Shown here piece by piece: positions 13,605 through 60,746 of a stretch of DNA of 64,000 nucleotides. Each line of letters begins with the position of its first letter. The stretch's first letter is position 1. Under the pieces are notes generated by a model that saw only the letters and a list, made by a program, of their open reading frames with translations, did no database searches and was not told the DNA's origin. The stretch covers positions 15,997 to 79,996 of the forward strand of contig CAYFYY010000004.1 of NCBI GenBank assembly GCA_964347475.1, in the 5' to 3' direction. The translations under genes and the position numbers were made by a program. This DNA is from an uncultured Flavobacteriales bacterium (GTDB lineage Bacteria > Pseudomonadota > Alphaproteobacteria > UBA8366 > JADFVY01).

Positions 13605-13610
13605 AAAGAA

Positions 13611-22145: not shown

Positions 22146-22229
22146 AAACACAACGGGGATGCGCGGGAGCCACGATGCGCACCGCTGATCGCGGACGGCG
22201 ATCGAGTCCCCCGCCCTGCTGGAGATATC

Positions 22230-31864: not shown

Positions 31865-32412
31865 GAATCGGGACTCCCATGCGCGGCACCGGCGCCAGGC
31901 GCAGGTTGTCCTGGCTCATCGTGGAGCTTGCGCCCGTCGCGAACCCTCTGCCAGGTCTCCGGAAGGCTGAGGGCCTCGCCGATCATGAACAAGACGGCGC
32001 CGATCGGGATCACCGACTGCGTGAACTGGACGGGCACCTGGGGCAGGCTGACCAGCGTGTCGCCTTGCAGGAACTGCAGGATGAACCAGCCGATCCAAGC
32101 CAGCAAACCGAAGAACCCGAACACGACGATCTCGGAGAGAACCAGGAATACGAGACCCATGCGTGGCGGCACCGCCTCCACGATTCCTTCGAAGCCGATG
32201 TGGTTTCGCTTAAGCGCAGCAAGAGCAGCACAATAGTAGGTCAGCCATGCAAGCATGATCGATGCGACTTCGTCGTACCAGACCAGGGATGCGCCCGCCT
32301 TGCGGTACACAACCGCGACGACCACCACTGCGGTAAGCGAAACCATCAGGAAGATCGTAACAGCCTCGAGAGCACGTTCGAATATTCGACGCGCAAGCGC
32401 GAGCGTCACCAT
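31861..32412 (-). CDS. dctQ: TRAP transporter small permease subunit
   Basis: A four-TM small protein. The start is set at the ATG at 32412, preceded by GGAGGGAGG. Confidence 0.85.
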   Translation of the reverse strand: MVTLALARRIFERALEAVTIFLMVSLTAVVVVAVVYRKAGASLVWYDEVASIMLAWLTYYCAALAALKRNHIGFEGIVEAVPPRMGLVFLVLSEIVVFGFFGLLAWIGWFILQFLQGDTLVSLPQVPVQFTQSVIPIGAVLFMIGEALSLPETWQRVRDGRKLHDEPGQPAPGAGAAHGSPDS

Positions 32413-32490
32413 TGGGACCTCCCTCCACCCGGTCGGCAAAAGCCCCCGTCCGGACGCGCAGGTCCGGGCCGGGGGCTTCAGTCGTACCGA

Positions 32491-33474: not shown

Positions 33475-33551
33475 CTTTTCCTCCTTATTTCTTGCGTTAT
33501 TGTTCTTGGTTGTTCTCCTGACTCGGCCGGCCGGCCGAGGCTCGATTACAC

Positions 33552-34730
33552 CTAAGCGTTACGGCGCTCCGACAAAAACGCCATCGCAGCCATAACACCG
33601 CCTTTGTTGTGCGGGGTCCCCGCAACTTCCAGCCCCATTTCGACGCCCGCCAGGCTTCCCATCAGCATGAGGTCGTTGAACGCGCCGAGGTGGCCGATTC
33701 GGAAAATCTTGTCGGCGACTTTGCCAAGGCCCGAGCCAAGCGACATGTCGAAGCGACCCAGAATTGTCTTGCGCAATTCATCCGCACTGTGACCTTCAGG
33801 CATGACCACCGCGGTCAACGAATCGCTGTATTCGTCCTCCTTGACGCAGAGGATCTCCAGACCCCAGGAGCGCACCGCACGGCGCGTCGCTTCCGCAAGC
33901 CGGCAATGCCGGGCGAAGACCGCATCCAGGCCTTCCTCTTCCAACAGCATCTTCAACGCTTCGCGAAGACCATAAAGCAAATTCGTGGCCGGCGTGTAGG
34001 GGAAAAATCCCTTCTTGGCCGGCCCCAACATCTCTGCCCACGACCAATAGGATCTTGGCATGGTTGAGGCCTCCGACGCCTTCAGCGCCTTCGCGCTGAT
34101 GGCGTTGAAGCCGAGACCAGGAGGCAGCATCAGACCCTTTTGCGAACCGCCGACGGTAACGTCGACACCCCATGCGTCGTGGCGGTAGTCGATGGACGCC
34201 AGCGACGAGATCGTGTCGACCATCAGCAATGCCGGATGACGGGCCGAGTCGATCGCCCTGCGCACCGCCGGAACGTTGCTCGTCACGCCGGTCGACGTTT
34301 CGTTGTGGACCACGCACACGGCCTTGATTTCTTGACTCCTGTCCTCGGCGAGCCGGGCCTCGATCGCACCGGCATCGACGCCGCGCCGCCAGTCTCCCGG
34401 TAGCAGCTCCACCTCGAGGCCCAGACGGCCTGCGAGTTGCGACCATAACGTTGCGAAATGCCCGGTTTCGTACATCAATACGCGGTCGCCCGGCGACAGG
34501 GAATTGACCAACGCCGCTTCCCAAGCGCCGGTCCCCGATCCCGGGTAGATGACGACCTCGCCCTCGGTCTGGAAGACGCGTTTCATGCCTGCCACGACTT
34601 CAAGCCCAAGCGCAGCGAATTCCGGCCCGCGATGATCGATTGTCGGATTGTCCATTGCCCGAAGAATGCGGTCTGGCACATTCGTTGGGCCCGGAATTTG
34701 CAGGAAATGCCGCCCACTATGGAACGCCAT
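33552..34730 (-). CDS. class V aminotransferase (alanine/serine--glyoxylate aminotransferase family)
   Basis: From the ATG at 34730 (GGGAG RBS) the sequence reads MAFHSGRHFLQIPGPTNVPDRILRAM. The PLP-lysine region is GGSQKGLMLPPG. Confidence 0.88.
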   Translation of the reverse strand: MAFHSGRHFLQIPGPTNVPDRILRAMDNPTIDHRGPEFAALGLEVVAGMKRVFQTEGEVVIYPGSGTGAWEAALVNSLSPGDRVLMYETGHFATLWSQLAGRLGLEVELLPGDWRRGVDAGAIEARLAEDRSQEIKAVCVVHNETSTGVTSNVPAVRRAIDSARHPALLMVDTISSLASIDYRHDAWGVDVTVGGSQKGLMLPPGLGFNAISAKALKASEASTMPRSYWSWAEMLGPAKKGFFPYTPATNLLYGLREALKMLLEEEGLDAVFARHCRLAEATRRAVRSWGLEILCVKEDEYSDSLTAVVMPEGHSADELRKTILGRFDMSLGSGLGKVADKIFRIGHLGAFNDLMLMGSLAGVEMGLEVAGTPHNKGGVMAAMAFLSERRNA

Positions 34731-46379: not shown

Positions 46380-48233
46380 ATGACCACTCTCATCCTTGCT
46401 ATTGTCGTCGTTTTGGCCGCCTGGTTCGGGGCAGGTTACGTCACGTCGAGCGACCCTGCCTACGACCGGCTCCTGTCTTCCGCGCGGTTTGGTATACGTG
46501 GCCTCGGAATTCTGATCGCCCTCGCTCTTATCGCATCGCTGTCGTTCGTCTATGTCGACAAGGACCAGACCGGCCACAAGGACAAGGTCTACGGCTTCAA
46601 TTCGCTACAGGAGGGCGCCATCCTGGCGACCCAAGGGGAGATGGGACCGCAGGCGGACATCCTGCCGCCCGGGTTCCATTTCCAGCCGGCCCTGCGCATC
46701 CAGTACAACGTGACGATGGCGGATGTCATCGAGATCCCGTCGGGCCGCTACGGCTTCCTCGTCGCGCGCGACGGCCAGCCGCTGCGGGACGACCAGACCT
46801 ATGCCGATCCGTTCGCCGCAGAGGACGCCGATAAGATGATCAATGACGCGGCCTACTTCCTGTCCAACGGCGGGCAAAAGGGCCCGCAGACCACGGTGCT
46901 GACGCCCGGCAAGTACCGCCTGAACCATTTCCTGTGGAACGTCGAGATGGGGTCGGTCACCGACATCCCGAAAGGGTTCGTCGGCGTCGTGAAGTCCAAT
47001 GTCCGTTCCCGCGTCGATTTCGGTAATCTGCGCGCCGACCGGCCGGCGGACTGCGCGCCGACCGCCGATGTCGGCGAACTGAAGGGCGTGCTCAGCGTGC
47101 CGCTGGTGCCGGTCGGCTGCATCGGCGTCTGGGAACAGGCGCTGAACCCCGGCAAGTACTACATCAACGAGAAGGCCTATACCGTCACGCTGGTCGACAC
47201 CCGCGTTCAGACCTGGGAGTATCGCGGCGGGTTTACGCGGCGGCAGATCTCGCTGGCGGTGGACCAGCAGGGGCGAATCACCCAACGCGAAGAGTCGGAA
47301 AACGTCTCGGTGCCGCAGAATGCGGCGGACGAGGCGATCTTCCTCAAGATCGAGGGCTGGACCATCGCCCAGCAGCTGCGCGTTCTCGTGCAGGTGACGC
47401 CCGAGCACGCACCGTTCGTTGTCGCCTCCGTCGGCGGCCTGCAGGAGGTCGAGGACCGCATCATGAGCCCGGCCGTGCAGTCCGTCGTGCGCAATGTCGC
47501 CGGCGGCATGATCCGGGTGCCGACGCAAATCCTCGATCCGGGCGGGAACCCAATCCTCGACGCCGACGGCGAGCCCGAGATGCGGACGATCACGCGCCGC
47601 GTCCGCGTGCTCGACGTGATCGAGAACCGCACGGCGCTCGAGGAAGCGGTCGAGGCGATCATCCGCGACGAAGGCTTGAAAGCCGGCGTCGACATCAAGG
47701 AGGTACGGCTGCTCGAGCCCGACCTGCCGCCGGAACTCCTGGTCGCGCGCAAGCGCGAGCAGCTCGCGCAGCAGCTCGCCAAGGCCTACCATCAGGAACG
47801 CGGCGCCCAGAGTGAGCGGATCAAAACCGAGCAGACCCGCGCCACCGCCGATCAGCAAGACAAGCTGGTCGAAGCGCAGATCGAGGTGAAACGCTCGGAG
47901 CAGTTCGCGCTGGCGCGGCGCAACGAAGGCCAGGGCGAACGGGACAAGCTGATGCTGATCGCCGAGGGCCAGAAATCACAGTCGGCAATCCTCGGCGAGG
48001 ACCGGGTCGTCGAGCTGCGCAAGTTCGAGTTCGTTGTCGGTCGTTTACTGGACTTTTTCGACGCCAATCCGGAGGTCCTGACCTCGGCATTGACCAACGC
48101 GCAGAAATTTGTGCCGGAGCGGGTTTTCACGCTTGGCGCTGCCAACGGCTCCGGCGGCCTTGCCGGGGCGGCCGGCGTGCTGGGCGATTTTCTCGACAGC
48201 GGCTCGAAGAAAGAGGCCGCGGCCAAACAGTGA
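46380..48233 (+). CDS. SPFH/band-7 (flotillin-like) membrane protein
   Basis: 617 aa with N-terminal TM helices, repeated LxPGKYxxN beta-rich segments and a long charged coiled-coil C-terminal region (ARKREQLAQQLAKAYHQERGAQSERIKTEQ...). The family assignment rests on architecture only. Confidence 0.6.
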   Translation: MTTLILAIVVVLAAWFGAGYVTSSDPAYDRLLSSARFGIRGLGILIALALIASLSFVYVDKDQTGHKDKVYGFNSLQEGAILATQGEMGPQADILPPGFHFQPALRIQYNVTMADVIEIPSGRYGFLVARDGQPLRDDQTYADPFAAEDADKMINDAAYFLSNGGQKGPQTTVLTPGKYRLNHFLWNVEMGSVTDIPKGFVGVVKSNVRSRVDFGNLRADRPADCAPTADVGELKGVLSVPLVPVGCIGVWEQALNPGKYYINEKAYTVTLVDTRVQTWEYRGGFTRRQISLAVDQQGRITQREESENVSVPQNAADEAIFLKIEGWTIAQQLRVLVQVTPEHAPFVVASVGGLQEVEDRIMSPAVQSVVRNVAGGMIRVPTQILDPGGNPILDADGEPEMRTITRRVRVLDVIENRTALEEAVEAIIRDEGLKAGVDIKEVRLLEPDLPPELLVARKREQLAQQLAKAYHQERGAQSERIKTEQTRATADQQDKLVEAQIEVKRSEQFALARRNEGQGERDKLMLIAEGQKSQSAILGEDRVVELRKFEFVVGRLLDFFDANPEVLTSALTNAQKFVPERVFTLGAANGSGGLAGAAGVLGDFLDSGSKKEAAAKQ

Positions 48234-48249
48234 CGGTGCGGCCGACCTC

Positions 48250-48678
48250 TCAGTCGCGCACCACCAGCACGGAACAGTCGGCGTGCCGGACGACGCGGGC
48301 GGCGTTCGGGCCGAGCAGGTAGTCGGCCTGGCCGGGTCGGTGGGCCGCCATGACGATGAGGTCGGCGGCGATCCGCTTCGCGGCTGCCAGGATCTCTTCG
48401 TACACGATGCCGTGGTCGACATCGTGCGCGACATCGAGATCGCCGGGAACATGCGCGGAGACGAACTCCTTCAACGCCCGCTCCGCATTTGCCAGCGCCC
48501 GCTTCTCGTAGCCGTCGGGGAAGAACGAGCCGACGATGGCCATGCCGAAATCGGGCACCACTGTCATGACGTGCAGCTTAGCCCCATGGGCGCGGCACAG
48601 CTCCAGCGCCGTCGGCAGGGCCTTCTTCCACGACGACTCCTCATTCAGATCGATGGGCAACAGGATGGTCTGGTACAT
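48250..48678 (-). CDS. universal stress protein (UspA family)
   Basis: 142 aa with MYQTILLPIDL...GPNAARVVRHADCSVLVVR, the typical USP ATP-binding C-terminus. Confidence 0.9.
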   Translation of the reverse strand: MYQTILLPIDLNEESSWKKALPTALELCRAHGAKLHVMTVVPDFGMAIVGSFFPDGYEKRALANAERALKEFVSAHVPGDLDVAHDVDHGIVYEEILAAAKRIAADLIVMAAHRPGQADYLLGPNAARVVRHADCSVLVVRD

Positions 48679-48689
48679 GGCTCTTATCG

Positions 48690-51284
48690 TTAGGTTGTCT
48701 CGCCATCAGCGGCCGCGCGGCGCCGGCGTTGCAGCAGTACGATCACGCCCAGAAGGGCGAGCGCCGGAATATAGATAAGCTGTTTCGGCGGCTGGTCCGC
48801 TTCCACCTGCACGTCGAGGATCTCCCAGTCGAAATCGACACCCGCGGCCTCGGCCGCCGTCCCGAACACGATGTTGTCGACCAGCGTCTTGCCGTTCTCC
48901 TGACGAACCTCGATCCCGCCATGGGCGAGCCGGTCCGGGCCCGGCCCCGCCGGGCCGAGAGGCAGCGGGACGAACTTGGTCACGAAATCGCCGTCGATCG
49001 TCTCGCCCGACATGCGCACCCGCAGGATCGTGTTGGGGGGCTGCGCCTCGGCAATGGCCACGATCTCCGAGGCCGGCCGCGTCTCGAGCGGCGCCACGAT
49101 CATGTCCATCCAGAAGCCCGGCCGGAACAGCGTCAGCGCGATGGCGATCAGCATCAGGGATTCCCACAGCCGACTGCGAACCACCAGATATCCCTGCGTG
49201 CCGGCCGCGAACAGCAGCATCGCCGCGACCGCCGAGACGATGACCAGCAGCAGATGGGGCACGCTGTCGATTCCGATCATCAGCAGTTCGGTATTGAAGA
49301 TGAACATGAACGGGAGAATGGCCGTGCGAATATCGTAGGCGAACCCCTGCAGCCCGGTGCGGATCGGGTCGCCCTGCGAAATCGCCGCGGCGGCGAACGC
49401 GGCAAGACCGACCGGCGGCGTGTCGTCCGCCAGGATGCCGAAATAGAACACGAACATGTGCACCGCGATCAGCGGCACGATCAGCCCGGCCTCGGCGCCG
49501 AGCGTAACGATCACCGGCGCCATCAGGGTCGAGACCACGATATAATTTGCCGTTGTCGGCAGGCCCATGCCCAGCAACAGGCTGATGAAGGCGGTGAACA
49601 GCAGCATGAGGACCAGGTTGCCACCGGAGATGAACTCGACGAATTCGGTCATGACCAGTCCGATTCCGGTGAGCGTCACGGTGCCGACGACGATACCGGC
49701 GACCGCCGTGGCGATGCCGATGCCGATCATGTTGCGGGCGCCTGCCGCCAACCCGTCGATCGTATGCCTCCAGCCGACACGGGCGGCGGCGACGTAGTCT
49801 GGTGCGTGGCCGCGGAAAAATGCCTTCAGCGCATCCTGCGTGACGACCACGAAGATCATCAGCATCGACGCCCAGAAGGCGGCCAGCCCCGGCGAGAATC
49901 GCTCGACCACGAGGCACCAGATCAACACCACGACCGGCAACAGGAAGTGCAGGCCGGATTTCACGGTCTGTCCGACCTCCGGGAGGTATTCCATCCGGGC
50001 GATCTCGCTCTCCGGCGCGAGATCGGGAACGCGCGCCGCGATTCGCACGAGAAAGAGGTAGGCGGCCAGGATGACGGTCGCCGCGATCCACGGCGAAGCG
50101 GCACCGGCGACGTCCTTGACCCAGCCGAAGCCATAGTAGATGACGCCGGCAAGGATAATGACGCCGCCCGCCGTCAGCACGAAGCCGATCAGTCGGCGCG
50201 TGAGCGGCGAGACCTCGCGCCGCTGCAGGCCCTGCATACCCGCTTTCAGCGCCTCGAGATGCACGATGTAGACCAGCGCGATGTACGAGATCACGGCCGG
50301 CAGGAACGCGTGCTTTATCACCTCGACGTAAGAGATGCCGACATACTCGATCATCAGGAATGCGGCCGCGCCCATGATCGGCGGTGTCAGCTGCCCGTTG
50401 GTCGAGGAGGCCACCTCCACCGCCCCAGCCTTTTCGGCCGAGAATCCCACGCGTTTCATCAGCGGGATGGTGAAGGTTCCGGTCACCACCACATTGGCGA
50501 TCGACGAGCCGGAGATCATCCCGTTCATCGCGGACGAGACGACCGCCGCCTTGGCCGGCCCGCCGCGCAGGTGGCCGAGCAGCGAGAAGGCGACCATGGT
50601 GAAATAATTCCCGGCCCCCGCCTTGTCGAGCAGCGCGCCGAACAGCACGAACAGGAAAACGAAGGTCGTCGATACGCCGAGGCCGATACCGAAGACGCCT
50701 TCCTGGGTCAGCCACAGATGCGACATCGCTTTCTGGAAGGACGCACCCTTCCAGGCGATCACGTCGGGCGCAAGATGGCCGAAGAACACATAGGTCAGAA
50801 ACAGCAGCGCCACCACCATGAGCGGCGGACCCAGCGACCTGCGGGTCGCCTCGAGCAGGCAGACAAGACCGATGCCGGCGGCGGCGAGATCGTACCATTC
50901 GGGCAGGCCCGGCCGGGTCGACAGCGGGGTCGCCATGATCGCGGTGTAGCTTGCCGCTGCCGCCCCGATTATGGCCAGCACCCAGTCCTGGACCGGAATC
51001 CACCCGCGCGGCGAGCGCTTGAGGGCGGGAAACGAGAGGAAAGCGAGGAAGACCGCAAACGCGAGATGGATCGACCGCGTGTGGGTATCGTTCAGCAGCG
51101 GGACGTAATCCGCCAGCATGAAGGGCAGCGGCGAGGCGATCCAGATCTGGAACACCGACCATGCAACGGCGACGTAGAACAGCAGGCGTCGCGCAAACGC
51201 GTTCGTCGGCGCGCGCGCGCCGGTATCGGTCTCGGCGACGAAGTCCTGTGCCGATTTCACGGTCTTATTGTCATTTTCGGCCAC
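48690..51284 (-). CDS. TAXI-type TRAP transporter fused permease (DctQM fusion)
   Basis: 864-aa highly hydrophobic polytopic protein downstream of three TAXI binding-protein genes. Confidence 0.92.
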   Translation of the reverse strand: MAENDNKTVKSAQDFVAETDTGARAPTNAFARRLLFYVAVAWSVFQIWIASPLPFMLADYVPLLNDTHTRSIHLAFAVFLAFLSFPALKRSPRGWIPVQDWVLAIIGAAAASYTAIMATPLSTRPGLPEWYDLAAAGIGLVCLLEATRRSLGPPLMVVALLFLTYVFFGHLAPDVIAWKGASFQKAMSHLWLTQEGVFGIGLGVSTTFVFLFVLFGALLDKAGAGNYFTMVAFSLLGHLRGGPAKAAVVSSAMNGMISGSSIANVVVTGTFTIPLMKRVGFSAEKAGAVEVASSTNGQLTPPIMGAAAFLMIEYVGISYVEVIKHAFLPAVISYIALVYIVHLEALKAGMQGLQRREVSPLTRRLIGFVLTAGGVIILAGVIYYGFGWVKDVAGAASPWIAATVILAAYLFLVRIAARVPDLAPESEIARMEYLPEVGQTVKSGLHFLLPVVVLIWCLVVERFSPGLAAFWASMLMIFVVVTQDALKAFFRGHAPDYVAAARVGWRHTIDGLAAGARNMIGIGIATAVAGIVVGTVTLTGIGLVMTEFVEFISGGNLVLMLLFTAFISLLLGMGLPTTANYIVVSTLMAPVIVTLGAEAGLIVPLIAVHMFVFYFGILADDTPPVGLAAFAAAAISQGDPIRTGLQGFAYDIRTAILPFMFIFNTELLMIGIDSVPHLLLVIVSAVAAMLLFAAGTQGYLVVRSRLWESLMLIAIALTLFRPGFWMDMIVAPLETRPASEIVAIAEAQPPNTILRVRMSGETIDGDFVTKFVPLPLGPAGPGPDRLAHGGIEVRQENGKTLVDNIVFGTAAEAAGVDFDWEILDVQVEADQPPKQLIYIPALALLGVIVLLQRRRRAAADGETT

Positions 51285-51329
51285 TGCCGTTCTCCCCTGT
51301 CGTTTCTGTCCGCGCCGCCGTTCCCCGAG

Positions 51330-52325
51330 TCACATCAATCCCTTCTCCGAGAAATACCGGATCGCGCCTTCGTGCAGCGGCGCCGCAAGTCCCTCGGTTA
51401 TCATGCGTTGCGGGTCCAGCGCTCCGAAGGCCGGATACATTTTCTTGAACTGGTCGAGATTTTCGAACACGGCGCTGGTGATGGCGTACACCGTATCGGC
51501 GTCCAGGTCCTCCGAAACCACGACCGTCGCCCGCACCCCGAACGTATTGACGGGCCTGTCGTTGCCCCGGTAGATGGCGCCGGGAATGGTCATGTACGAA
51601 TAGTATGGATTTTCGGCCACCAGGCGGTCGATTTCCGGCCCCTCGACGTCGACCAGAAGCGCGTCGCAGAGCTCCGTCGCTTTCTCGATCGATTTGTTGG
51701 GATGGCCTACGACATAGACCATCGCCTCTATTCGACCGTGGCATAACGCAAGCGACTGCTGCGCTGCTGGCAGGCTGCCCGCAAATGAGAAGCTCCTGGG
51801 GGTCCATCCCATTGCGTCCATGACGACTTGCATGGTTGAGCGCTGGCCCGAGCCGGGATTCCCCAGATTGACGCGTCGTCCGGCGAGGTCGGCGAGCGAG
51901 CGAATGCCAGAATCCCGCCGCGCGACGAGCGTGAACGGCTCGCCGTGAACGGAGAAGACCGAGCGGATATTGTCATAGGAAACGTCGGCGAATTCGAGGA
52001 AATCGCCGGTCTTGTTGTACGCCTTGTAGTGCACGTCGGACTGAACGATACCGACCTCGAAGGCGTTGAGCTGCACGCTGTCCATGTTGAACCGGGAACC
52101 CGGGGTCGGCACCGCCGAGCATTCCAGGTCTTTCGAGTGCCGTTCCACGAGATGGCAGATGCCGCGTCCGACCTGGAAATAGACCCCCAGGACGCTGCCC
52201 GTGCCGATGACGATTTCGGTCGCGCCGGATGCGGGCACTGCGAACGCCGCAAGCAGCGCGGCGGCCACTCCCATGACGCGGGTCAACCTCACGCGAAGGC
52301 CGTCGAGTCGTGCCGGTGTGGGCAT
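51330..52325 (-). CDS. TAXI family TRAP solute receptor (paralog 1)
   Basis: It has a signal peptide and TAXI signatures (IGTGSVLGVYFQVGRGIC, VQSD, NLGNPGSGQR, PLHEGAIRYFSEKG). Confidence 0.88.
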   Translation of the reverse strand: MPTPARLDGLRVRLTRVMGVAAALLAAFAVPASGATEIVIGTGSVLGVYFQVGRGICHLVERHSKDLECSAVPTPGSRFNMDSVQLNAFEVGIVQSDVHYKAYNKTGDFLEFADVSYDNIRSVFSVHGEPFTLVARRDSGIRSLADLAGRRVNLGNPGSGQRSTMQVVMDAMGWTPRSFSFAGSLPAAQQSLALCHGRIEAMVYVVGHPNKSIEKATELCDALLVDVEGPEIDRLVAENPYYSYMTIPGAIYRGNDRPVNTFGVRATVVVSEDLDADTVYAITSAVFENLDQFKKMYPAFGALDPQRMITEGLAAPLHEGAIRYFSEKGLM

Positions 52326-52390
52326 ATGGTGGGCGCCGCCGGATCAGATAGGGACGGGGGAACAGGCACTGCCGTCCCCCGCCCGTCGCA

Positions 52391-53374
52391 TCACATGAGG
52401 CCGGCTTCCTTGTAGTACCTGATCGCCCCGTCATGCAGGGGCGCCGAAAGCCCGTCACGAACCATCTCTTCCTTCTTCAGATTCTCGAACGCCGGATGCA
52501 GCGATTTGAAATCGTCGAAGTTCTCGAAGACGGCCTTGACGACCTGGTAGACGACCTCCGCCGGAACCTGTGTCGAGGACACGAAAGTGGCACCGACGCC
52601 GAATGTCTTCACGTCCTCGGGGTTGCCGCCATACATGCCACCGGGGATCGTCGCATGGCGGTAGAACGGGTTCTCCTTGACCAGCTTGTCGATCGCCGGG
52701 CCTGTGACGTCGACCAGAACGGCGTCGCATGACGTGACGGTCTCCTTGGTCAGGCCGGACGGATGCCCGACCAGCCAGAAATAGGAGTCGATCTTGTTGT
52801 CGCACAGCGCCTGGCCCGTCTCAGCAGACTTCAACTCGGCCGCCAGTTTCAGGTCACTGCGCTGCCAGCCGAGTGCCCCTTCGAGGACTTCCCACGTCGC
52901 CCGCGTTCCCGATCCGGGATTGCCGATATTGAGGCGCTTGCCCTTGATATCGTCAATGTGCCTGATCCCCGAATCTCGGCGCGCGAGGATCGTTACCGGC
53001 TCCGGATGCACCGAGAAGACGGCGCGCAGCTCCTTGAACGGGCCCTGGTCCTCGAACGTGCTGGTGCCGTTGTAGGCGTGATACTGCCAGTCCGACTGCG
53101 CCACGCCCATGTCCAGCTCGCCGGCGCGGATCGTATTGATGTTGTAAACCGACCCGCCGGTGCTTTCGACCGAACAGCGGATCCCGTGCTCCTTGCGGTT
53201 CTTGTTGACAAGGCGGCAGATGGCGCCTCCGGTGGGATAGTAAACGCCGGTCACGCCGCCGGTGCCGATGGTGATGAATTTCTGCTGCGCCTGCGCGGGC
53301 GCCGCCCCGAGAGACCAGATCCCGAGGGTTACGGCAGCGGCCAGCGTCGCTGCGGTCAAAATTCTTGCCTTCAT
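52391..53374 (-). CDS. TAXI family TRAP solute receptor (paralog 2)
   Basis: The start is the ATG at 53374 ([15 protein letters not shown]...). Signatures are [28 protein letters not shown] and [14 protein letters not shown]. Confidence 0.9.
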
Positions 53375-53557
53375 GAGAAGCTCCCGTTTCTGTTTTGGTT
53401 TGCGCCGTATGTCGGCGTTGTTCCTTGGCGACGGATATCGTGACACATAGGCCGACGCGTCACGGCGACCGGCCACCAGATATCCGAAGGGATACGCGCG
53501 ACTATGACTCCCCGGTATACGCGGCGTCAACCGCGAATGCGCCGATTTCCAAGGCTT

Positions 53558-54595
53558 TCACGGAAGCACGCCGTGTGACTTGAAGGCCGATTCGGCCCCC
53601 TCGTGGAGCGGCAATGCGACACCCGATCTCGCCATCGCCTTGCGGTCGAGGCCGGCAAGCGCCGGATGTTGATCCGTCAGGGTGGATAACGCATCAAGCA
53701 CCGCGTCAACGACGGTTTCGACGATTTCGCTCTCGACCTGTGTCGTGGTGGCGAGAATCGCCCGCAGGCCGAACGTTGGTACGTCGTCGGGCACGCCGAC
53801 GTAAAGACCGCCCGGCACAATCGCTGGCGCAAGCTCCGGGCGGCTCCCCAACAGCTTGTCGATCTCGGGTCCGGCAACCGGCACGAGGCGCAGATCGCAA
53901 CGCTGCATGGCGTCGGCCAGCACCGGCGACGGGTGAGCCGCGACGACGGCCGCCGCGTCCAGCTCGCCCGTGCACAAGGCCGTGAACTGCTCCGCCGCGG
54001 ATACTTCCATGACCTGTGCGAGATCGTCCTCATCTAGGTCGATGGCGCGAAACAGGGTTTCGGTCAGAACACGCTGGTACGTGTAGGCCGGCCCCAGATT
54101 GATCCGCTTGTTCTCAAGGTCCGCCGGCTTTTCGATGCCCGCGCCGGCGCGTGCGACCAGGGTTAGGGCCTCGGCGTGCAGCGACAGGGCGGCGCGCAGG
54201 GATTCGTCGGGCCCGTTCGGCCGGAACAGACTGGTCCCTCTTGATGCGTGCATCAGCCAGTCCGACTGGACGACAGCAAAATCAAGCAACCCGCTGGCGA
54301 GCCGCTCAAGATTTGCCGACGAATTCGCATTGCTTTCCACAAGGCAACGCCGGCCCGGCGCCTGTTGGGAGACGACGCGGCAGATCGCGCCGGCCGCGGG
54401 GAAATACACGCCGGCCACGGTGCCGCCACCGATCACGATGTCGCGTTCGGGCGCGGACTCGCTTGCGGCCGCTTCCGGCCCGGCGCTCTCGGCGGCCTCG
54501 CCGTGGTCGTGGTTATCCGGTCTTGCGGGCTGCGCAGTGGCAATCAGCAGCGCCGCAAGCAGTCCGGACAAAAGCGTCGATCGCAACACGGTCAT
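53558..54595 (-). CDS. TAXI family TRAP solute receptor (paralog 3, with His/acidic N-terminal linker)
   Basis: It has a signal peptide, a linker (DNHDHGEAAESAGPEAAASESAPE), and then GGGTVAGVYFPAAGAIC...PLHEGAESAFKSHG. It overlaps the upstream gene by 4 nt. Confidence 0.85.
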   Translation of the reverse strand: MTVLRSTLLSGLLAALLIATAQPARPDNHDHGEAAESAGPEAAASESAPERDIVIGGGTVAGVYFPAAGAICRVVSQQAPGRRCLVESNANSSANLERLASGLLDFAVVQSDWLMHASRGTSLFRPNGPDESLRAALSLHAEALTLVARAGAGIEKPADLENKRINLGPAYTYQRVLTETLFRAIDLDEDDLAQVMEVSAAEQFTALCTGELDAAAVVAAHPSPVLADAMQRCDLRLVPVAGPEIDKLLGSRPELAPAIVPGGLYVGVPDDVPTFGLRAILATTTQVESEIVETVVDAVLDALSTLTDQHPALAGLDRKAMARSGVALPLHEGAESAFKSHGVLP

Positions 54596-55434
54596 GGCCT
54601 CCCAAGATGTGCGCGGGCGAGGTCGGCGTCGGCCAAGGCACGGCCGAGCAGGTTCGCGCCGTCTGCAATCTGTCCGACAAGTGCCGCATTGTCCGGGGCG
54701 ACCGATCCGTCCGCCAAGTGGATATTGTTCTCGAAGCCGACGCGCGCGTGCCCGCCAAGCGCCGCCGCCGTCAGCGCGCAGGCCGATTCACGAGGGCCGA
54801 AGGCACAAATCGCCCAATCGAGCGCAAGCCTGCGGTCCGCCTGGAGGAACGGCAGCAGATCGGCAGGAACAGACTTCTGGCCCGGCGCATAGCGGCCCAG
54901 CACGTACAGCACGAACGGCCTGTCATACGGTACGACACCGCGCTGCCGCAAGTCAGCGAACCATTCGCAGTCCTCCGGCGAATAAAGGATGAATTGCGGT
55001 CCGATTTGCTCGCCCTTCAGCCACGTCAGGAATTCGGCGAATCCGGCGACCGACTCCTCGTCCGGGCAAAGCTCGCGGATCGCCATCGACACCGCCTCGG
55101 GCCGGACCGCGCGCACCGCCGCCATCTGCTCCGCCGGCCGGTAGATCCCAACCGCCTCGGTCGTCATCTGAACGATCATGGCATCGCCGGTCTCTCGCCG
55201 GACCGCGGCGATGGCCGCCCCGTACAGAGCCGCGTCGAGGCTGTGCTTGCCCTCGGCGTTGCGCACATGCAGATGGATCATCGCTGCCCCGGCCTCCCGG
55301 CACGCGGCTGCGACGCGGGCGCATTCCTCCGCCGTGACCGGCATCGCCGGATGGTCCGCCTTGTCCTTGCGCGCCCCGTTCGGGGCCACCGCCAGGATGA
55401 GCGGCGCGTCAATGTCGAAATTCTGCATGGTCAT
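54592..55434 (-). CDS. beta-keto acid cleavage enzyme (BKACE / DUF849, 3-keto-5-aminohexanoate cleavage family)
   Basis: 280 aa with APNGARK, MIHLHVRN and the GHARVGFENN motifs characteristic of the DUF849 TIM-barrel family. Confidence 0.85.
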   Translation of the reverse strand: MTMQNFDIDAPLILAVAPNGARKDKADHPAMPVTAEECARVAAACREAGAAMIHLHVRNAEGKHSLDAALYGAAIAAVRRETGDAMIVQMTTEAVGIYRPAEQMAAVRAVRPEAVSMAIRELCPDEESVAGFAEFLTWLKGEQIGPQFILYSPEDCEWFADLRQRGVVPYDRPFVLYVLGRYAPGQKSVPADLLPFLQADRRLALDWAICAFGPRESACALTAAALGGHARVGFENNIHLADGSVAPDNAALVGQIADGANLLGRALADADLARAHLGRP

Positions 55435-56765
55435 ACCGTCGCCGCGGCGATCGCCGCATCGATCGCCTCGGCCAGCCGATCAACGATCAGGTCGATATGG
55501 CCGGGCTCGACAATGAAGGGCGGCGCCAGCAGGACATGGTCGCCTTTCTTGCCGTCCACCGTTCCGCCCATCGGGTAGCAGATCAGGCCGCGCCGCATCG
55601 CCTCGGCCTTGATGCGCGCGTTGAGCCGCGTGGCCGGATCGAAAGGCTCCTTCGTCGTGCGGTCGGCGACCAGCTCGACGCCGCGGAACAGGCCGCGGCC
55701 GCGGATGTCGCCGACGTGGCGGTGATTGCCGAGTCGTTCGGTCAGCGCGCGGTCCAGCAGGTCGCCCATGGCCCGGACGTTGGCCAGGAGATCCTCCTCC
55801 GCGATGACCTTCTGCACCTCGAGGGCGGCGGCGCAGGCCGTCGGGTGTCCCATATAGGTATGGCCGTGCTGGAAGAAGCCCGAGCCGCCGCGGATCGCCT
55901 CGTAGATCCGGCCGGCGACCATGGTCGCACCGATCGGCTGATAGCCGGCGCCAAGCCCCTTCGCCACGGTCATGATGTCGGGCGCGACGCCGTCGTGCTC
56001 GCAGGCATGCAGGGTGCCGGTGCGGCCCATGCCGCACATCACCTCGTCGAGGATCATCACAACGCCGTAGCGGTCGCAGATCTCTCTAATCCGCCGGAAA
56101 TATCCTTCGGCCGCGGGCACCGCTCCAAGGGTCGCGCCGACCACGGGCTCGGCGATGAAGGCGATGACGGTGTCGGCGCCGAGCTCGAGGATTTTGGTTT
56201 CCAGCTCGTCGGCGACGCGCCGGCCGAAGTCCGCTTCGCTCTCGCCGTCCTCGGCCCAGCGGTAGGCGAAGCAGGGAGAGATGTGGTGCGTTTCGATCAG
56301 CAGCGGCTCGTACTGCTGGCGCCGCCACATGTTGCCGCCGGCCGCCAGCGCCCCCAGGGTGTTGCCGTGATAGCTCTGCAGCCGCGCGATCACGTGTCGG
56401 CGCTGCGGCTGGCCGATCTCGACGAAATACTGCCGCGCGAGCTTGAGCGCCGCCTCCACCGCCTCCGAGCCGCCGGAGACGAAATAGACATGGTCGATGC
56501 CGGTCGGCGCGTCCGCGACCAGCCGGTCGGCCAGCGTCTCCGCCGCCTCGCTGGTAAAAAAGCCGGTATGGGCGAACGGGATGGCGTCCAGCTGCCCCTT
56601 GATCGCCGCCACCACCCGGGCGTTGCTGTGGCCGAGGCAGGACACCGCGGCGCCGCCCGAGGCGTCGAGATAGCGCTTGCCGTCGCGGTCCTCGATGAAC
56701 ACGCCGTCGCCCCTCGCCGCGACGGGGTAATGGGCGCTCGTGTGGCGGTGGAAGACGTGAGTCAT
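55431..56765 (-). CDS. class III (omega) aminotransferase
   Basis: 444 aa with FVSGGSEAVEAALKLARQY, ILDEVMCGMGRTG and DIMTVAKGLGAGY (PLP-lysine). Confidence 0.92.
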   Translation of the reverse strand: MTHVFHRHTSAHYPVAARGDGVFIEDRDGKRYLDASGGAAVSCLGHSNARVVAAIKGQLDAIPFAHTGFFTSEAAETLADRLVADAPTGIDHVYFVSGGSEAVEAALKLARQYFVEIGQPQRRHVIARLQSYHGNTLGALAAGGNMWRRQQYEPLLIETHHISPCFAYRWAEDGESEADFGRRVADELETKILELGADTVIAFIAEPVVGATLGAVPAAEGYFRRIREICDRYGVVMILDEVMCGMGRTGTLHACEHDGVAPDIMTVAKGLGAGYQPIGATMVAGRIYEAIRGGSGFFQHGHTYMGHPTACAAALEVQKVIAEEDLLANVRAMGDLLDRALTERLGNHRHVGDIRGRGLFRGVELVADRTTKEPFDPATRLNARIKAEAMRRGLICYPMGGTVDGKKGDHVLLAPPFIVEPGHIDLIVDRLAEAIDAAIAAATV

Positions 56766-56913
56766 GACCTCGGAAATCCGTGACTGGCGATGCGCCGGGC
56801 GCGGCTCCGGCGGCGGCCCATAATGGCGTCGCCCCCGCCCGAGGTCCAGACGATGTTGTGCGGTCTTGCAGCCGAATCGCCTCGCCGTTGCGTCACGGCC
56901 GGCATCTTGACCG

Positions 56914-57570
56914 TCACGCGCCGGGTCCGCGCACGATCTTCTCGCCCTCGGTCAGGGTCCACACGACGATGTCCTTGATCGTGCTGCCCAGCGCCTCGTC
57001 GAACGCCATGACGATGCCGGCCATCGCGTTCCGCTTCGCCCTCACCCGATGTTCGAACGTCTGGGAGGCGACGATGACGCGTTGCGGCATGCGCACCAGC
57101 TTGGCGTTGATGCGCACGCGAACCCAGGGTGGCTCGCTGGCGGCCCCCTCCGCCGGCTTCCTGTCGTATTCCGCCTGGAACTCGCGCAGCTCCGATTTGA
57201 GCAGGAGGTTGGAGCGCAGGCCGATGGCGTCGCTGCCGACGGCGACGATGCGTCCGGAGTTCTCGAACGATTCGACGATCAACCGCTGGACCATCTCCGG
57301 CGCCCGGTCGGTCCAGTTGGCGCGGGCGAAATAGTCGATCTCGATCGGGCTGTACGAGACCGCGATACGCGGCGAATCGAGGGCCGCCGGCGACGTTGTC
57401 TTCTCCACCAGAAGCTGCCATTCCACGTGGTTCAGGTCGTCGGGATAGGTGCTCTTCGGGGTCAGCACATAGAGCTGCGCCGGCTCTCCCGTCCCCGGCA
57501 GCGGCACGGTGCAGCCCATGAGGACGGCGGCGATGACCAGGGCCGTACGCCTTGAGATCCATCGCATCAT
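56914..57570 (-). CDS. ABC-type transport auxiliary lipoprotein (DUF330 / PqiC-YmbA-like)
   Basis: It has a lipobox (VLMGC), is 218 aa long, and overlaps the MCE gene by 4 nt. Confidence 0.8.
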   Translation of the reverse strand: MMRWISRRTALVIAAVLMGCTVPLPGTGEPAQLYVLTPKSTYPDDLNHVEWQLLVEKTTSPAALDSPRIAVSYSPIEIDYFARANWTDRAPEMVQRLIVESFENSGRIVAVGSDAIGLRSNLLLKSELREFQAEYDRKPAEGAASEPPWVRVRINAKLVRMPQRVIVASQTFEHRVRAKRNAMAGIVMAFDEALGSTIKDIVVWTLTEGEKIVRGPGA

Positions 57571-58520
57571 TTGACCTCCACCCCCTGTTGCTGGTCGCCG
57601 AACAGGAACCGCGCCGGGTCGCGCTCGATCTGTTCTGTCAGCCGACTCAATGCACTCACCAGAATCCGCGCCTCGGCCATCAGCTGTCCGAACTCGTACA
57701 GGCCGGTGGAACTGAAATTGCTGATCGGTTCGCGGTTCTCCGTCATGAATTTCGCGAATTCCTCCGAAGCTATGGTCAGCTGCGCGATCGCCTTGCGGAC
57801 CTCCGCGAGCACGAGGCGCGTGTCCTTCGTGACGCCACCGACATCCTTTTCGATCGAGGCGAGCATGACGTTGGCGCGGTCGGTCACCTGGCGAAGGCCT
57901 TCCATCGTCAGCACCCCTTCGGCGAGCATCGCCTCGACCTGATCGCTGCTGCCCGCGAGGGTACCGGTCATCGCTTTGATATTGTCGAGGGAACTCGCGA
58001 TGCTTTCCAGGTTGGCGTCGCTCAGCAGCTTCTCCATCTGGCCGACCACCGCGATGGTCCGTTTGAGCAGTTCCGGCGCCGCGTCGATCAGCGCGGCCAA
58101 TTGCGATGGACTCGACCGGATGACGGCACGGTCGCGGCCGGGCGGGGGCCTGAGGGGCGGCGACTTCTGCGTGCCACCGGTCAGCTGGATGTACGATACG
58201 CCAGTGATGCCCTGCATCGCGAGCGTGGCCTCGGTATCTTCACGGATCGGCGTGCCGGCCTCCACCTCGATGGTGACCAGGACCTGCTCGACGTTGTCCG
58301 GATCGATCCGCATGTCGACGACTCCGCCCACCGGAATGCCCCTGTATTGCACGGCATTGCCCGGCTTGAGGCCGGCGACGCTGCCCTCGAAATAGATGTC
58401 GTAGAGCACCGTGCCCCGCTCGGAGCGCGAGCCGGCGATCCAGACCGCGGTGGCGATCATCGCCGTGATGCCGACGATGACGAAGATCCCGACCAGCAGA
58501 TAGCTCGCTCGTGTCTCCAC
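57567..58520 (-). CDS. MlaD/MCE family substrate-binding protein
   Basis: The start is placed at the GTG at 58520 (METRASYLLVGIFVIVG), overlapping the mlaF stop by 1 nt. It has an MCE domain (GLKPGNAVQYRGIPVGGV). Confidence 0.88.
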   Translation of the reverse strand: METRASYLLVGIFVIVGITAMIATAVWIAGSRSERGTVLYDIYFEGSVAGLKPGNAVQYRGIPVGGVVDMRIDPDNVEQVLVTIEVEAGTPIREDTEATLAMQGITGVSYIQLTGGTQKSPPLRPPPGRDRAVIRSSPSQLAALIDAAPELLKRTIAVVGQMEKLLSDANLESIASSLDNIKAMTGTLAGSSDQVEAMLAEGVLTMEGLRQVTDRANVMLASIEKDVGGVTKDTRLVLAEVRKAIAQLTIASEEFAKFMTENREPISNFSSTGLYEFGQLMAEARILVSALSRLTEQIERDPARFLFGDQQQGVEVK

Positions 58521-59310: not shown

Positions 59311-60444
59311 TCAGATCCCCATCGTGGCGAACATGATGGAGAACGCCGCGTCCGCGACGATCACAAGGAAGATCGACAGCACGACGGCGCGCGTCGTCAT
59401 CCGGCCGACGCTCTCGGCACCGCCGGACACCCTGAGGCCCTCGTAACAGCCGACGATTCCGATGATGAAGGCGAAGGCCGGCGCCTTGACGAGTCCCACC
59501 ATGAAATGGGCGAAGGTCGCCGCCTCCTCGAGCCGGACCAGGAACTGCGTGGTGCTCATGTCCATCGTGACGATCGCCATCGCGGCGCCGCCGACCAGCC
59601 CGACGATGTCGGCGAATACCGTGAGCATCGGCAGCGCGATCACGAGGGCGATGAGCCGGGGCAGCACCAGCACTTCCACCGGGTCGAGACCCAGCGCCTG
59701 CATTGCCGCGATCTCCTCGTTGACTTTCATGGTGCCGATCTCCGCCGTGAAGGCGGATCCCGAGCGGCCCGCGATCATGATCGCGGTCAGCAGCACGCCC
59801 AGCTCGCGCAGGATCGTGATGGCGAGCATGTCGATGGTCAGGATCTCGAAGCCGAGGCTGCGCAGCTGCACCGAGCCCTGGTAGGCGATCACGATGCCGA
59901 TCAGGAACGTCATCAGGAGGATGATCGGGATCGCGTTCAGTCCCGCCCGCTCTAGCTGGTTGGCCAGCGGGACGAGGCGAAACCGGCGCGGGCGCAGGAA
60001 ATGCCGCAGGAAGGTCACCGTCACCTCGCCGACGAAACCGAGCAGCGCCGTCAGTTCCCGCCCGGCGGCGACGGTGGTGCGTCCAAGCCGCTCGATGGCG
60101 ACGGCAACAGGGTTGCGGCGCGACGCTTCCGGCGGCTCCCGGCCCTCGTTGTCGGCCACGAGGTCGAACAGCGGCTGCATCTGCGCCGAAATGCCCTCGA
60201 AGTCAACGCGCGCCCCCGCGGCCTCGTAACGGCGCGCTGCGGTGCGCAGCAGGTGGACGCCCGCCGTGTCGACGCGGTCCAGCGCCGACAGATCGAAGCG
60301 GACGCGCTCGGACCGCTCCGGCTCCAGCCCCATGACGGCCTGCTCCAGCGCGGCCGCCCCGGCAATCGTCCACATGCCGCCCGCCGAAACGACGAGCCGC
60401 CCGTCCGCCGCTGCCTGTCTGATCCAGCCCGGCCCGTCGCCCAT
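59311..60444 (-). CDS. MlaE-family ABC permease with N-terminal STAS-like domain
   Basis: The start is set at the ATG at 60444 (MGDGPGWIRQ...). A ~110-aa STAS-like region (RFDLSALDRVDTAGVHLL) precedes the MlaE core (GRSGSAFTAEIGTMKVNEEI). Confidence 0.88.
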   Translation of the reverse strand: MGDGPGWIRQAAADGRLVVSAGGMWTIAGAAALEQAVMGLEPERSERVRFDLSALDRVDTAGVHLLRTAARRYEAAGARVDFEGISAQMQPLFDLVADNEGREPPEASRRNPVAVAIERLGRTTVAAGRELTALLGFVGEVTVTFLRHFLRPRRFRLVPLANQLERAGLNAIPIILLMTFLIGIVIAYQGSVQLRSLGFEILTIDMLAITILRELGVLLTAIMIAGRSGSAFTAEIGTMKVNEEIAAMQALGLDPVEVLVLPRLIALVIALPMLTVFADIVGLVGGAAMAIVTMDMSTTQFLVRLEEAATFAHFMVGLVKAPAFAFIIGIVGCYEGLRVSGGAESVGRMTTRAVVLSIFLVIVADAAFSIMFATMGI

Positions 60445-60746
60445 GCCTGCCCCGCTACGGTTCGCGCTCGGAGCATAGCCGAGTCGCCCGGCCCGGCAAA
60501 GCGGGCGGATGCGACGGGCTGCCGGGCCGGGCCGCGTGGCCGGCACCGGTGGAACGACCCCATGCAAAGGCGTTTTCCGCGGCTTTCGGGACCGCCAAAG
60601 GGGCCCGATCACACGATCGTGTGCGGCGCGCGCGACGCGGTACCGAATCGTGACCGGACGGGGAGCGTTTCGTGAGGATTTGCCGCCAATCCTGTCCGCC
60701 CGGGCCAGTACGGCCCGTGCATTCAGATCTGGAAAGGAGGGTCACC

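Follow-up and report, generated by a model that had tools for sequence, protein, structure and literature searches.

The closest described relatives of the transporter at this locus are glutamate-type TAXI-TRAP systems. VcGluPQM of Vibrio cholerae (VC0430/VC0429) is glutamate-specific and has a fused permease with a claw domain, and a UspA gene lies downstream of VC0429 (PMC11574862). In Cereibacter sphaeroides, deletion and complementation showed that rsp_1412/1413 confers growth on L-glutamate that depends on Na+; three genes further downstream were reported as co-transcribed, neither identified nor tested, and the authors suggest that they relate to L-glutamate uptake (PMC12632250). Glutamate catabolism in the same organism was mapped to a glutamate dehydrogenase encoded elsewhere (PMC12632250). 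RSP_1412/1413 provide the only genetic evidence on the cargo of this transporter type.

Among DUF849 enzymes, the founding BKACE is Kce, the 3-keto-5-aminohexanoate cleavage enzyme (PDB 2Y7D-G). The group G6 is recorded in secondary sources as "not BKACE, presenting decarboxylation activity," with activity in 16 cases on beta-ketoglutarate only and none in the reverse (condensation) reaction (PMC4922564; bioRxiv 10.1101/2023.02.15.528638, summarising Bastard et al. 2014). NetSyn cluster 14, which corresponds to G6, already lists a class-III aminotransferase, a TRAP receptor, UspA, and an RpiR regulator as gene context (Table S1, bioRxiv 10.1101/2023.02.15.528638); a glutamate identity of the TAXI system and multiple receptors go unmentioned in that description. 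The module of aminotransferase, G6 DUF849 enzyme, one glutamate-type TAXI system, and universal stress protein is therefore already known in the literature. What is new at the locus described here is the presence of three receptors rather than one, with one of them (TAXI-1) always attached to enzyme genes.

Gene order and the two units

Every named gene was confirmed, on the minus strand, between positions 48250 and 56765 of the window, by which we mean the whole 64,000-nucleotide stretch of DNA analysed. Features are given from the upstream end of the locus:

56766..56913, minus strand: intergenic region of 148 nt upstream of the aminotransferase gene, upper boundary of the locus
55431..56765, minus strand: class-III (omega-type) aminotransferase (AT), 444 aa, at the head of the enzyme unit
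54592..55434, minus strand: DUF849 zinc enzyme, 280 aa, with a 4-nt overlap with the AT stop
53558..54595, minus strand: TAXI-1, divergent receptor, 345 aa, its start overlapping the DUF849 stop (ATGA)
53375..53557, minus strand: inter-unit spacer of 183 nt between TAXI-1 and TAXI-2
52391..53374, minus strand: TAXI-2 receptor, 327 aa
52352..52384, minus strand: G+C-rich stem-loop just 3' of the TAXI-2 stop codon, within a 65-nt spacer
51330..52325, minus strand: TAXI-3 receptor paralog, 331 aa
48690..51284, minus strand: TRAP permease with fused Q and M parts and a C-terminal DUF3394 "claw," 864 aa
48250..48678, minus strand: universal stress protein (USP), 142 aa, 11 nt past the permease gene

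The locus consists of two units side by side. Unit A comprises AT, DUF849, and TAXI-1, coupled by ATGA overlaps, and unit B comprises TAXI-2, TAXI-3, the permease, and USP; in a related genome (G301), the AT-DUF849-TAXI-1 group lies about 110 kb away from TAXI-2-TAXI-3-permease-USP. The true start of TAXI-2 is the ATG at 53374, which is preceded by a GGGAG ribosome-binding site. A first-pass annotation of this DNA missed the two-unit structure. It had described eight same-strand genes, and while the common strand holds, its list contains seven; it gave the spacer lengths, 183 nt and 65 nt, correctly. The receptor motifs that it quoted as shared by the paralogs occur in TAXI-2 and TAXI-3, but not in TAXI-1, which reads IGGGTVAGVYF... 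and PLHEGAESAF.

The same-strand run extends upstream into a four-gene Mla/MCE-type ABC system. The real gene upstream of AT encodes an ABC_trans_aux lipoprotein (56914-57570; 9.2e-15) and is separated from AT by the 148-nt gap. An ORF at 56762-57562 (266 aa), which seems to overlap the AT start, returned no family match and is a shadow ORF; operon continuity with the Mla-type genes was therefore rejected.

A sigma-70-like site (TTGACG, 18 nt, CATAGT) at 53530-53501, inside the 183-nt spacer, is a consensus match only and occurs at chance frequency, shuffled sequence averaging 1.3 such sites. The stem of the TAXI-2 3' stem-loop, GGGGGA(A/G)CGG / CCGTTCCCCC, is preserved in six relatives; its folding energy is ordinary compared with shuffles (z = -0.45), and no T-run lies downstream of it. 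An Rfam scan of 47500-58000 matched no family. A riboswitch or attenuator in the spacers was considered as well, and was dropped because the spacer folds are no stabler than shuffled sequence, with the Rfam scan empty.

A glutamate-type transporter with three receptors

The permease matches TIGR02123 at 676 bits and carries the DUF3394 claw at residues 679-856 (211 bits), and its N-terminus is conserved among 13 orthologues; the USP matches Pfam Usp at 2.6e-28. All three receptors score well above the TIGR02122 (TRAP_TAXI) cut-off of 84 bits (TAXI-1, 218; TAXI-2, 358; TAXI-3, 282), with pairwise identities of 39% (TAXI-1/TAXI-2), 34% (TAXI-1/TAXI-3), and 47% (TAXI-2/TAXI-3). TAXI-2 aligns with glutamate-bound VcGluP (PDB 8s4j) at E 2.4e-136, gap-free over residues 31-326 and about two-thirds identical by eye. 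It keeps the residues Y45, Y46, S75, Q93, H123, and E125, shares V44 and G156 with VcGluP as well, and differs from it at G40, T157, W200, and L201; the receptor tree places it among the single-copy receptors from other loci. The combination of TIGR02122 receptors, a TIGR02123 permease with DUF3394, and the ligand residues is that of the glutamate-type TAXI-TRAP systems. By these comparisons the transporter is assigned as an orthologue of the proven L-glutamate systems, and TAXI-2 as the ancestral glutamate-type receptor and orthologue of VcGluP; high-affinity binding and transport of L-glutamate would be expected from this orthology. The relationship to glutamate systems is absent from the first-pass annotation.

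The fused DUF3394-claw permease with a downstream USP is arranged as in VcGluPQM. However, VcGluPQM has one receptor where the locus has three, and the locus adds AT and DUF849 genes, neither of which is described beside VC0430. In Cereibacter johrii (L057), the sister species of C. sphaeroides, the order is TAXI, permease, USP, AT, DUF849. By analogy, the three co-transcribed genes of C. sphaeroides are presumably USP, AT, and DUF849, and RSP_1412/1413 would belong to the same module as the locus, although with a single receptor and with the enzymes downstream of the transporter, as opposed to upstream here.

Residues Y45, S75, Q93, and E125 are present in all three receptors and are kept in all 60 related receptors bar one (L007_8211). 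The remainder of the pocket stays close to that of VcGluP in TAXI-2 and TAXI-3, but is rebuilt in TAXI-1. TAXI-3 forms its own clade inside the glutamate-type group, with S40, F46, Q157, Y200, and V201 in the pocket. TAXI-1, in which a His/Asp/Glu-rich linker comes after the signal peptide, belongs to a long-branch clade in which the pocket residues Y154-T155-Y156-Q157, V200, V201, and A203 are fixed; relative to VcGluP, the G-S-G-D loop has become Y-T-Y-Q, and Y200 has become V. Purifying selection acts on all three receptors (dN/dS 0.04-0.20), with values of 0.04-0.11 for TAXI-3 and 0.10-0.20 for TAXI-1. As the latter holds out to 64% amino-acid identity, a reading of TAXI-1 as a decaying pseudogene was rejected. 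TAXI-1 and TAXI-3 are read as old copies of the glutamate receptor that selection has maintained. Since both keep the amino-group residues in altered pockets, they most likely extend the range of ligands or divide it.

TAXI-1 lies 3' of a DUF849 gene in 12 of the 12 informative metagenome loci, drawn from a metagenome scan for the contexts of TAXI-1 relatives, and in all genome loci having TAXI-1. The predicted complex of TAXI-1 (residues 55-345) with the permease (residues 170-864) received a score of 0.00, which speaks neither for nor against pairing. TAXI-1, TAXI-3, or both might instead serve as periplasmic sensors or as matrix or structural proteins that do not feed the permease. TAXI-1 can be distant from any TAXI permease gene, as in G301; for TAXI proteins, pairing with partners outside the TRAP family, such as GltS, is on record (PMC12344293); and VcGluP reportedly has a role in the biofilm matrix of V. 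cholerae (PMC12718363). Such a role nevertheless appears improbable for these receptors, as TAXI-1 is translationally coupled to catabolic enzymes and not to signalling genes, a sensor kinase or chemoreceptor gene is absent from the locus, and TAXI-3 sits between TAXI-2 and the permease gene.

The enzyme pair and its genomic neighbourhood

The DUF849 protein matches Pfam PF05853 at 225 bits, above the cut-off, but scores below all of the NCBIfam BKACE equivalog cut-offs. The same genome has three further DUF849 genes, which reach 322-366 bits with the Pfam model. The protein at this locus belongs to the same TIM-barrel fold family as Kce (E 1.4e-30) and keeps the zinc ligands H54, H56, and E235 (Kce H46, H48, and E230), along with the arginine R231 (Kce R226). 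The zinc ligands are invariant across the subfamily, with H56L as the sole exception. Other active-site positions differ from Kce: E14 is replaced by R22, S82 by T, E143 by I149, and D231 by N236, and R, I, and N occupy the positions of E14, E143, and D231 in 66-67 of 67 subfamily members. With these replacements, Claisen cleavage with acetyl-CoA is not to be expected. A canonical DUF849 paralog in another genome (L042) has E and D at 143 and 231 and G at 14. Bellinzoni and colleagues reportedly described the catalytic roles of Kce E143 and D231 in 2011; these roles were cross-checked here only via the logos of active groups. Those logos show E at position 14 and, in the only one that runs to 21 residues, D at position 21, the others being printed to position 20 (bioRxiv 10.1101/2023.02.15.528638). 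The protein thus has the PF05853 domain and zinc ligands of a strict BKACE, but lacks the catalytic Glu (position 14) and Asp (position 21).

The substituted residues correspond to the signature of G6. The residues that distinguish this group are N21, I14, R2, E6, F18, and R17, among which R2, I14, and N21 map exactly, and only these three do, to R22, I149, and N236. E6 is probably the invariant E93, and candidates for F18 are F212 and F234, both invariant; R17 and F18 are without firm placement. These data suggest that the DUF849 protein is a probable G6-type 3-oxoglutarate decarboxylase, and the labels "BKACE" and "3-keto-5-aminohexanoate cleavage" are probably wrong for this subfamily.

The AT matches Pfam Aminotran_3 (5.5e-97) and NCBIfam NF005685 (PRK07483; 797.6 bits against a cut-off of 485, over residues 1-442 of 444), the latter a family with no assigned function or substrate. 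Its nearest solved structures are omega-transaminases and 3i4j. Across 80 species-level alphaproteobacterial loci, an AT gene adjoins the DUF849 gene in about 52, a glutamate-type TAXI system lies within 10 kb of DUF849 in about 45, and both accompany it in about 38, in several orders, strands, and orientations; the USP after the permease is conserved in about 31. The sole other conserved neighbour is an RpiR regulator (20 loci), which is absent from the window genome in a whole-genome search for the PF01418 family. The locus accordingly shares the AT, the TRAP (TAXI) receptor, and the USP with the published G6 context, together with the R2/I14/N21 signature, but not RpiR.

It is very unlikely, indeed the least likely of the readings considered, that the enzyme genes and the transporter genes adjoin by chance, with no link in function. 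Though the units are apart in G301, and the enzyme unit trails an unrelated Mla-type operon in this clade, the linkage recurs in the roughly 38 loci, which span Rhodobacterales, Rhizobiales, and Rhodospirillales and vary in order and strand, the TAXI-1 subfamily is never found apart from a DUF849 gene, and the same context was found independently by NetSyn (bioRxiv 10.1101/2023.02.15.528638).

The first-pass annotation had proposed that imported beta- or omega-amino acids are transaminated and that a true BKACE then splits the products with acetyl-CoA to give acetoacetate and an acyl-CoA. Part of this stands. Its general idea, from beta-amino acid to beta-keto acid to DUF849 enzyme, matches the published inference (NetSyn Table S1), and because the AT/DUF849 pair is conserved near TAXI systems, the proposal does not fail on lack of such conservation, which it had named as grounds for abandoning it. 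The above-threshold Pfam BKACE match, the omega-transaminases nearest to the AT, and acetoacetate activation encoded in the genome also agree with it. The Claisen cleavage is contradicted by the I and N at Kce E143 and D231, by the G6 signature, and by the low score relative to the other DUF849 genes and to the equivalog cut-offs; the active-site check that it had called for returned residues fitting a group that secondary sources record as not BKACE and without condensation activity. Beta-alanine, 3-aminobutyrate, and the carnitine- and lysine-derived compounds that it named as substrates do not yield beta-ketoglutarate, the sole recorded G6 substrate, and the receptors keep a glutamate-type pocket. 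Cleavage by a true BKACE is therefore judged highly improbable here.

A putative route for acidic amino acids

On balance, we favour a reading in which two side-by-side transcription units combine acidic amino acid import with a route from beta-glutamate through 3-oxoglutarate to acetoacetate. Unit B would be a secondary importer that relies on binding proteins, of the VcGluPQM type, the cargoes of TAXI-2 including L-glutamate, and unit A a brief catabolic pathway that brings a receptor of its own. An acidic beta-amino acid, for which beta-glutamate (3-aminoglutarate) is the most plausible candidate, would be bound in the periplasm and imported via a permease shared by all three receptors; the class-III AT would turn beta-glutamate into 3-oxoglutarate, and the zinc-dependent DUF849 enzyme would decarboxylate this to acetoacetate and CO2 without acetyl-CoA cleavage. 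Acetoacetate could then be activated by an acetoacetyl-CoA synthetase encoded elsewhere in the genome (963 bits; cut-off 521). Uptake of acidic amino acids is the most likely function of the transporter, with L-glutamate suggested by orthology and beta-glutamate as a putative further substrate.

A simpler reading takes L-glutamate, perhaps with glutamine or pyroglutamate, as the only substrate: the AT would deaminate it to 2-oxoglutarate or use it as amino donor, DUF849 would serve a side reaction, for instance the decarboxylation of a different keto acid, and the receptors would be affinity tiers. The ligands and phenotypes established by experiment for orthologous receptors concern L-glutamate only, the suggestion made for the co-transcribed C. 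sphaeroides genes (PMC12632250) points the same way, and Y45, S75, Q93, and E125 are common to the three receptors. We regard this reading as rather unlikely all the same. It has no need for a zinc-dependent beta-keto-acid enzyme, 2-oxoglutarate not being a beta-keto acid, and G6 enzymes are recorded in secondary sources as active only on beta-ketoglutarate; glutamate catabolism in C. sphaeroides was mapped to the dehydrogenase encoded elsewhere (PMC12632250), and the TAXI-1 loop for the alpha-carboxylate is rebuilt beyond affinity tuning. Were L-glutamate the only substrate, the locus would be an ordinary glutamate importer with extra receptors.

Returning to the beta-glutamate route, concentrations of this compound of up to 730 mM are known from Nitrosopumilus maritimus, and ocean particulate metabolomes contain it too (PMC8269262). 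Should it be the substrate, the module would account for the ability of common marine and sediment Alphaproteobacteria to feed on an osmolyte that is abundant in archaea and has no established pathway of aerobic degradation. More tentatively, and with some doubt, TAXI-1 may be the first receptor specialised for beta-glutamate or for a different non-proteinogenic acidic amino acid, arisen by duplication of a glutamate receptor and since then fixed beside the genes for the aminotransferase and decarboxylase. In that case, the module would supply the aerobic pathway, so far missing, for taking up and degrading beta-glutamate, which ammonia-oxidising and methanogenic archaea use as a major osmolyte, and the three-receptor clade would represent one bispecific receptor split into specialists that use one permease. 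TAXI transporters are widespread and few have a known cargo; with three related receptors tied to one permease and a two-enzyme route, the locus offers a concrete set of ligands and reactions that can be tested cheaply.

Within the same DUF849 subfamily, members from SAR11 and Gammaproteobacteria adjoin an FAD monooxygenase, an extradiol dioxygenase, and DctPQM. As these contexts differ, the DUF849 enzyme may have another or broader substrate. Some AT-DUF849 pairs adjoin a polar-amino-acid ABC importer instead of a TAXI system.

Gene content and conserved linkage

The module is of a known kind, and the variation particular to this window is its three receptor genes. The first-pass annotation, largely confirmed as an observation, had counted eight same-strand genes; its named genes are all present and all on the minus strand, and their number is seven. 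They are listed here below the gene upstream of them, with the TAXI receptors numbered in gene order.

56914-57570, minus: ABC_trans_aux lipoprotein, 218 aa (ABC_trans_aux, 9e-15), last gene of the upstream Mla/MCE-type ABC operon
55431-56765, minus: class-III aminotransferase, AT (Pfam Aminotran_3; NCBIfam NF005685, 797 bits)
54592-55434, minus: DUF849/"BKACE" protein (PF05853, 225 bits)
53558-54595, minus: TAXI-1 receptor (TIGR02122, 218 bits)
52391-53374, minus: TAXI-2 receptor (TIGR02122, 358 bits)
51330-52325, minus: TAXI-3 receptor (TIGR02122, 282 bits)
48690-51284, minus: fused TRAP permease with a C-terminal DUF3394 domain
48250-48678, minus: universal stress protein, USP

NF005685 is a family without assigned function, and the DUF849 protein falls under all NCBIfam equivalog cut-offs. 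Four-nucleotide overlaps occur at both the AT/DUF849 and DUF849/TAXI-1 junctions; the spacers of 183 and 65 nt reported between the receptor genes were confirmed. An ORF at 56762-57562 (minus, 266 aa) seemingly overlaps the AT start; it lacks a family match and was rejected in favor of the real gene in another frame (56914-57570), which leaves a gap of 148 nt upstream of AT.

Scanning a single genome for each species recovered 80 loci that encode a relative of the window DUF849. AT adjoins this gene in approximately 52 of them; a glutamate-type (Glu-type) TAXI receptor and permease, usually accompanied by USP, lie within 10 kb in approximately 45; and both arrangements coincide in approximately 38. 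The proposed association of an AT/DUF849 pair with TAXI systems is thus retained elsewhere, spanning Rhodobacterales, Rhizobiales, and Rhodospirillales with varying gene order and orientation. The sole other recurring neighbor is an RpiR-type regulator (20 of 80 loci), in whose place Lentilitoribacter carries a dCache histidine kinase and a LuxR-type response regulator; a family search of the 100%-complete window assembly found no HTH_6/RpiR-family regulator. Beside some AT-DUF849 pairs, a family-3 polar-amino-acid ABC importer is found instead of TAXI.

The DUF849 enzyme

Acetyl-CoA cleavage by a BKACE had been proposed for the DUF849 product. When aligned to the founding BKACE, the 3-keto-5-aminohexanoate cleavage enzyme Kce (PDB 2Y7D), the window protein retains the zinc ligands and R226, while Kce E14, S82, E143, and D231 are replaced by R22, T91, I149, and N236; the combination R/T/Q/I/N at the compared positions is common to all 67 subfamily members. 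Bellinzoni et al. in 2011 reportedly assigned catalytic roles to Kce E143 and D231. As a cross-check, logos of the active DUF849 groups carry E at logo position 14, and the one active-group logo that extends to position 21 closes with R-E-D (NetSyn supplement, bioRxiv 10.1101/2023.02.15.528638). A canonical DUF849 paralog in a related locus (L042) has E and D at 143 and 231, and G at position 14. Three further DUF849 genes in the window genome score 322-366 bits, as compared with 225 bits for the locus gene.

In the published family partition, group G6 is described as "not BKACE, presenting decarboxylation activity" (PMC4922564); according to secondary sources, its 70 proteins showed beta-ketoglutarate activity in 16 cases, and in none for the reverse direction. 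The residues that set G6 apart are N21, I14, R2, E6, F18, and R17; three of these (R2, I14, and N21) coincide exactly with what the window DUF849 has in place of the Kce residues, and its invariant E93 probably corresponds to E6. Judged from its sequence, the locus "BKACE" is probably not a BKACE: the replacement of E143 and D231 speaks against acetyl-CoA cleavage, and the G6 residue match points to a decarboxylase-type group. The NetSyn preprint lists a class-III AT, RpiR, a TRAP solute receptor, UspA, and a glutamate/aspartate transporter subunit as the context of G6 (its cluster 14), and describes the enzyme as decarboxylating beta-ketoglutarate (bioRxiv 10.1101/2023.02.15.528638); as a computational inference, the module had thus been published before, together with its probable chemistry. 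Given this context and the conserved linkage, the pathway originally envisaged was right in outline, though probably wrong in its enzyme chemistry and substrates.

The same R/I/N DUF849 subfamily appears in SAR11 and gammaproteobacterial single-cell genomes and MAGs (L032-L043, L052, L062, L063) with no AT or TAXI nearby; its neighbors there are an FAD monooxygenase, an extradiol dioxygenase, and a DctPQM TRAP system. These neighbors suggest a second, aromatic-type role, and the differing context cautions against assigning one fixed substrate to the subfamily.

A glutamate-type transporter with three receptors

TAXI-2 aligns without gaps to VcGluP, the glutamate TAXI-TRAP receptor of Vibrio cholerae (PDB 8S4J; E 2.4e-136), and shares its residue numbering. 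Mutagenesis of VcGluP identified Y45 and Q93 as key glutamate-binding determinants, with S75, E125, G156, D157, Y200, and M201 completing the site (PMC11574862). Like its permease VcGluQM, the window permease has the DUF3394 "claw," and USP lies downstream here as a UspA gene does there. Alignment and permease architecture point to a transporter of the glutamate type, an identity on which the first-pass annotation was silent, and orthology predicts L-glutamate as one cargo. In C. sphaeroides, the TAXI system rsp_1412/1413 confers Na+-dependent growth on L-glutamate, as shown by transposon hits together with in-frame deletion and complementation, and three downstream genes were judged co-transcribed (PMC12632250). 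Since its sister species C. johrii (L057) has the order TAXI, permease, USP, AT, DUF849, we infer that these three unnamed Cereibacter sphaeroides genes are very probably USP, AT, and DUF849.

The window receptors share 39% (TAXI-1/TAXI-2), 34% (TAXI-1/TAXI-3), and 47% (TAXI-2/TAXI-3) identity, and V44, Y45, S75, Q93, H123, and E125 are present in all three. The TAXI-3 pocket has S40, F46, Q157, Y200, and V201; in the TAXI-1 clade, Y/F154-T155-Y156-Q157 replaces G-S-G-(Q/T), accompanied by I/V200, V201, and A203, all fixed clade-wide. A quick, midpoint-rooted tree of 60 receptors places TAXI-2 with single-copy receptors and TAXI-3 in a separate clade within the Glu-type group, and a very long branch leads to the TAXI-1 clade. 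Values of dN/dS between 0.04 and 0.20 indicate that none of the three is decaying. The TAXI-1 linker behind the signal peptide (residues about 25-52) is of low complexity; across relatives, A24 never varies and H29 and R51 rarely do, a partial conservation that argues against pure drift.

In the likeliest mechanism, the three receptors would bind acidic amino acids and hand them over to one Glu-type permease; AT would transaminate beta-glutamate to 3-oxoglutarate, which the G6-type DUF849 would decarboxylate to acetoacetate. An acetoacetyl-CoA synthetase is encoded in the window genome. On our reading, the AT-DUF849 pair is chemically sensible only for a 3-amino dicarboxylate, and the Arg at the Kce E14 position, together with R231, would suit a dicarboxylate substrate. 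Marine archaea contain abundant beta-glutamate, and the compound can also be detected in particles from seawater (PMC8269262). Where a genome has a single receptor, that protein would need to handle L-glutamate as well as the substrate of the enzymes; this clade may have split the work, with TAXI-1 linked to the enzyme pair.

In the closest relative (L001), TAXI-2 and the permease (8834-9973 and 11077-13665) share only 82% and 76% identity with their window counterparts, as compared with 90-97% for flanking genes, and TAXI-2 has a Q157/F200/T201 pocket; this looks like patchwise recombination inside the locus. A contig labeled as an Akkermansiaceae MAG (L007) carries an alphaproteobacterial-type module with four receptor genes at 4431-9263, and is either mis-binned or the recipient of a transferred module. 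Its fourth receptor (8211-9263) has lost Y45, S75, and Q93, with H, R, and P in their places.

Two-unit arrangement and flanking genes

Relatives of TAXI-1 with at least 54% identity fall into approximately 75 clusters, and metagenomes or MAGs are the source of every one. In each of the 12 informative metagenome loci, as in all genome loci where TAXI-1 occurs, it comes immediately after the DUF849 gene, and in a Rhodospirillales genome (G301) approximately 110 kb separate AT-DUF849-TAXI-1 from TAXI-2-TAXI-3-permease-USP. Among the TAXI-1 relatives, one called protein of 604 aa from a JGI contig (P0060) combines DUF849 (PF05853) and TAXI domains, reflecting either a true DUF849::TAXI-1 fusion or read-through of the ATGA overlap. 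The 183-nt spacer contains one sigma-70-like match, at chance level; six relatives share a G+C-rich stem-loop behind the stop codon of TAXI-2, although its folding energy is unremarkable.

Tail-to-tail with USP lies a plus-strand gene (46380-48233) whose 617-aa product matches SPFH/Band 7 weakly; it holds the same place in three related loci (L001, L002, L004). On the upstream side of the locus, an MlaE-type permease of 433 aa (59311-60612, minus) has an N-terminal extension with a weak MlaB/STAS-like match (NF033618, residues 105-151) and may be a fused STAS-MlaE protein. G+C falls to 0.57-0.60 at 18001-24000 and 32001-34000, against a background of 0.62-0.70; these stretches may be acquired DNA.
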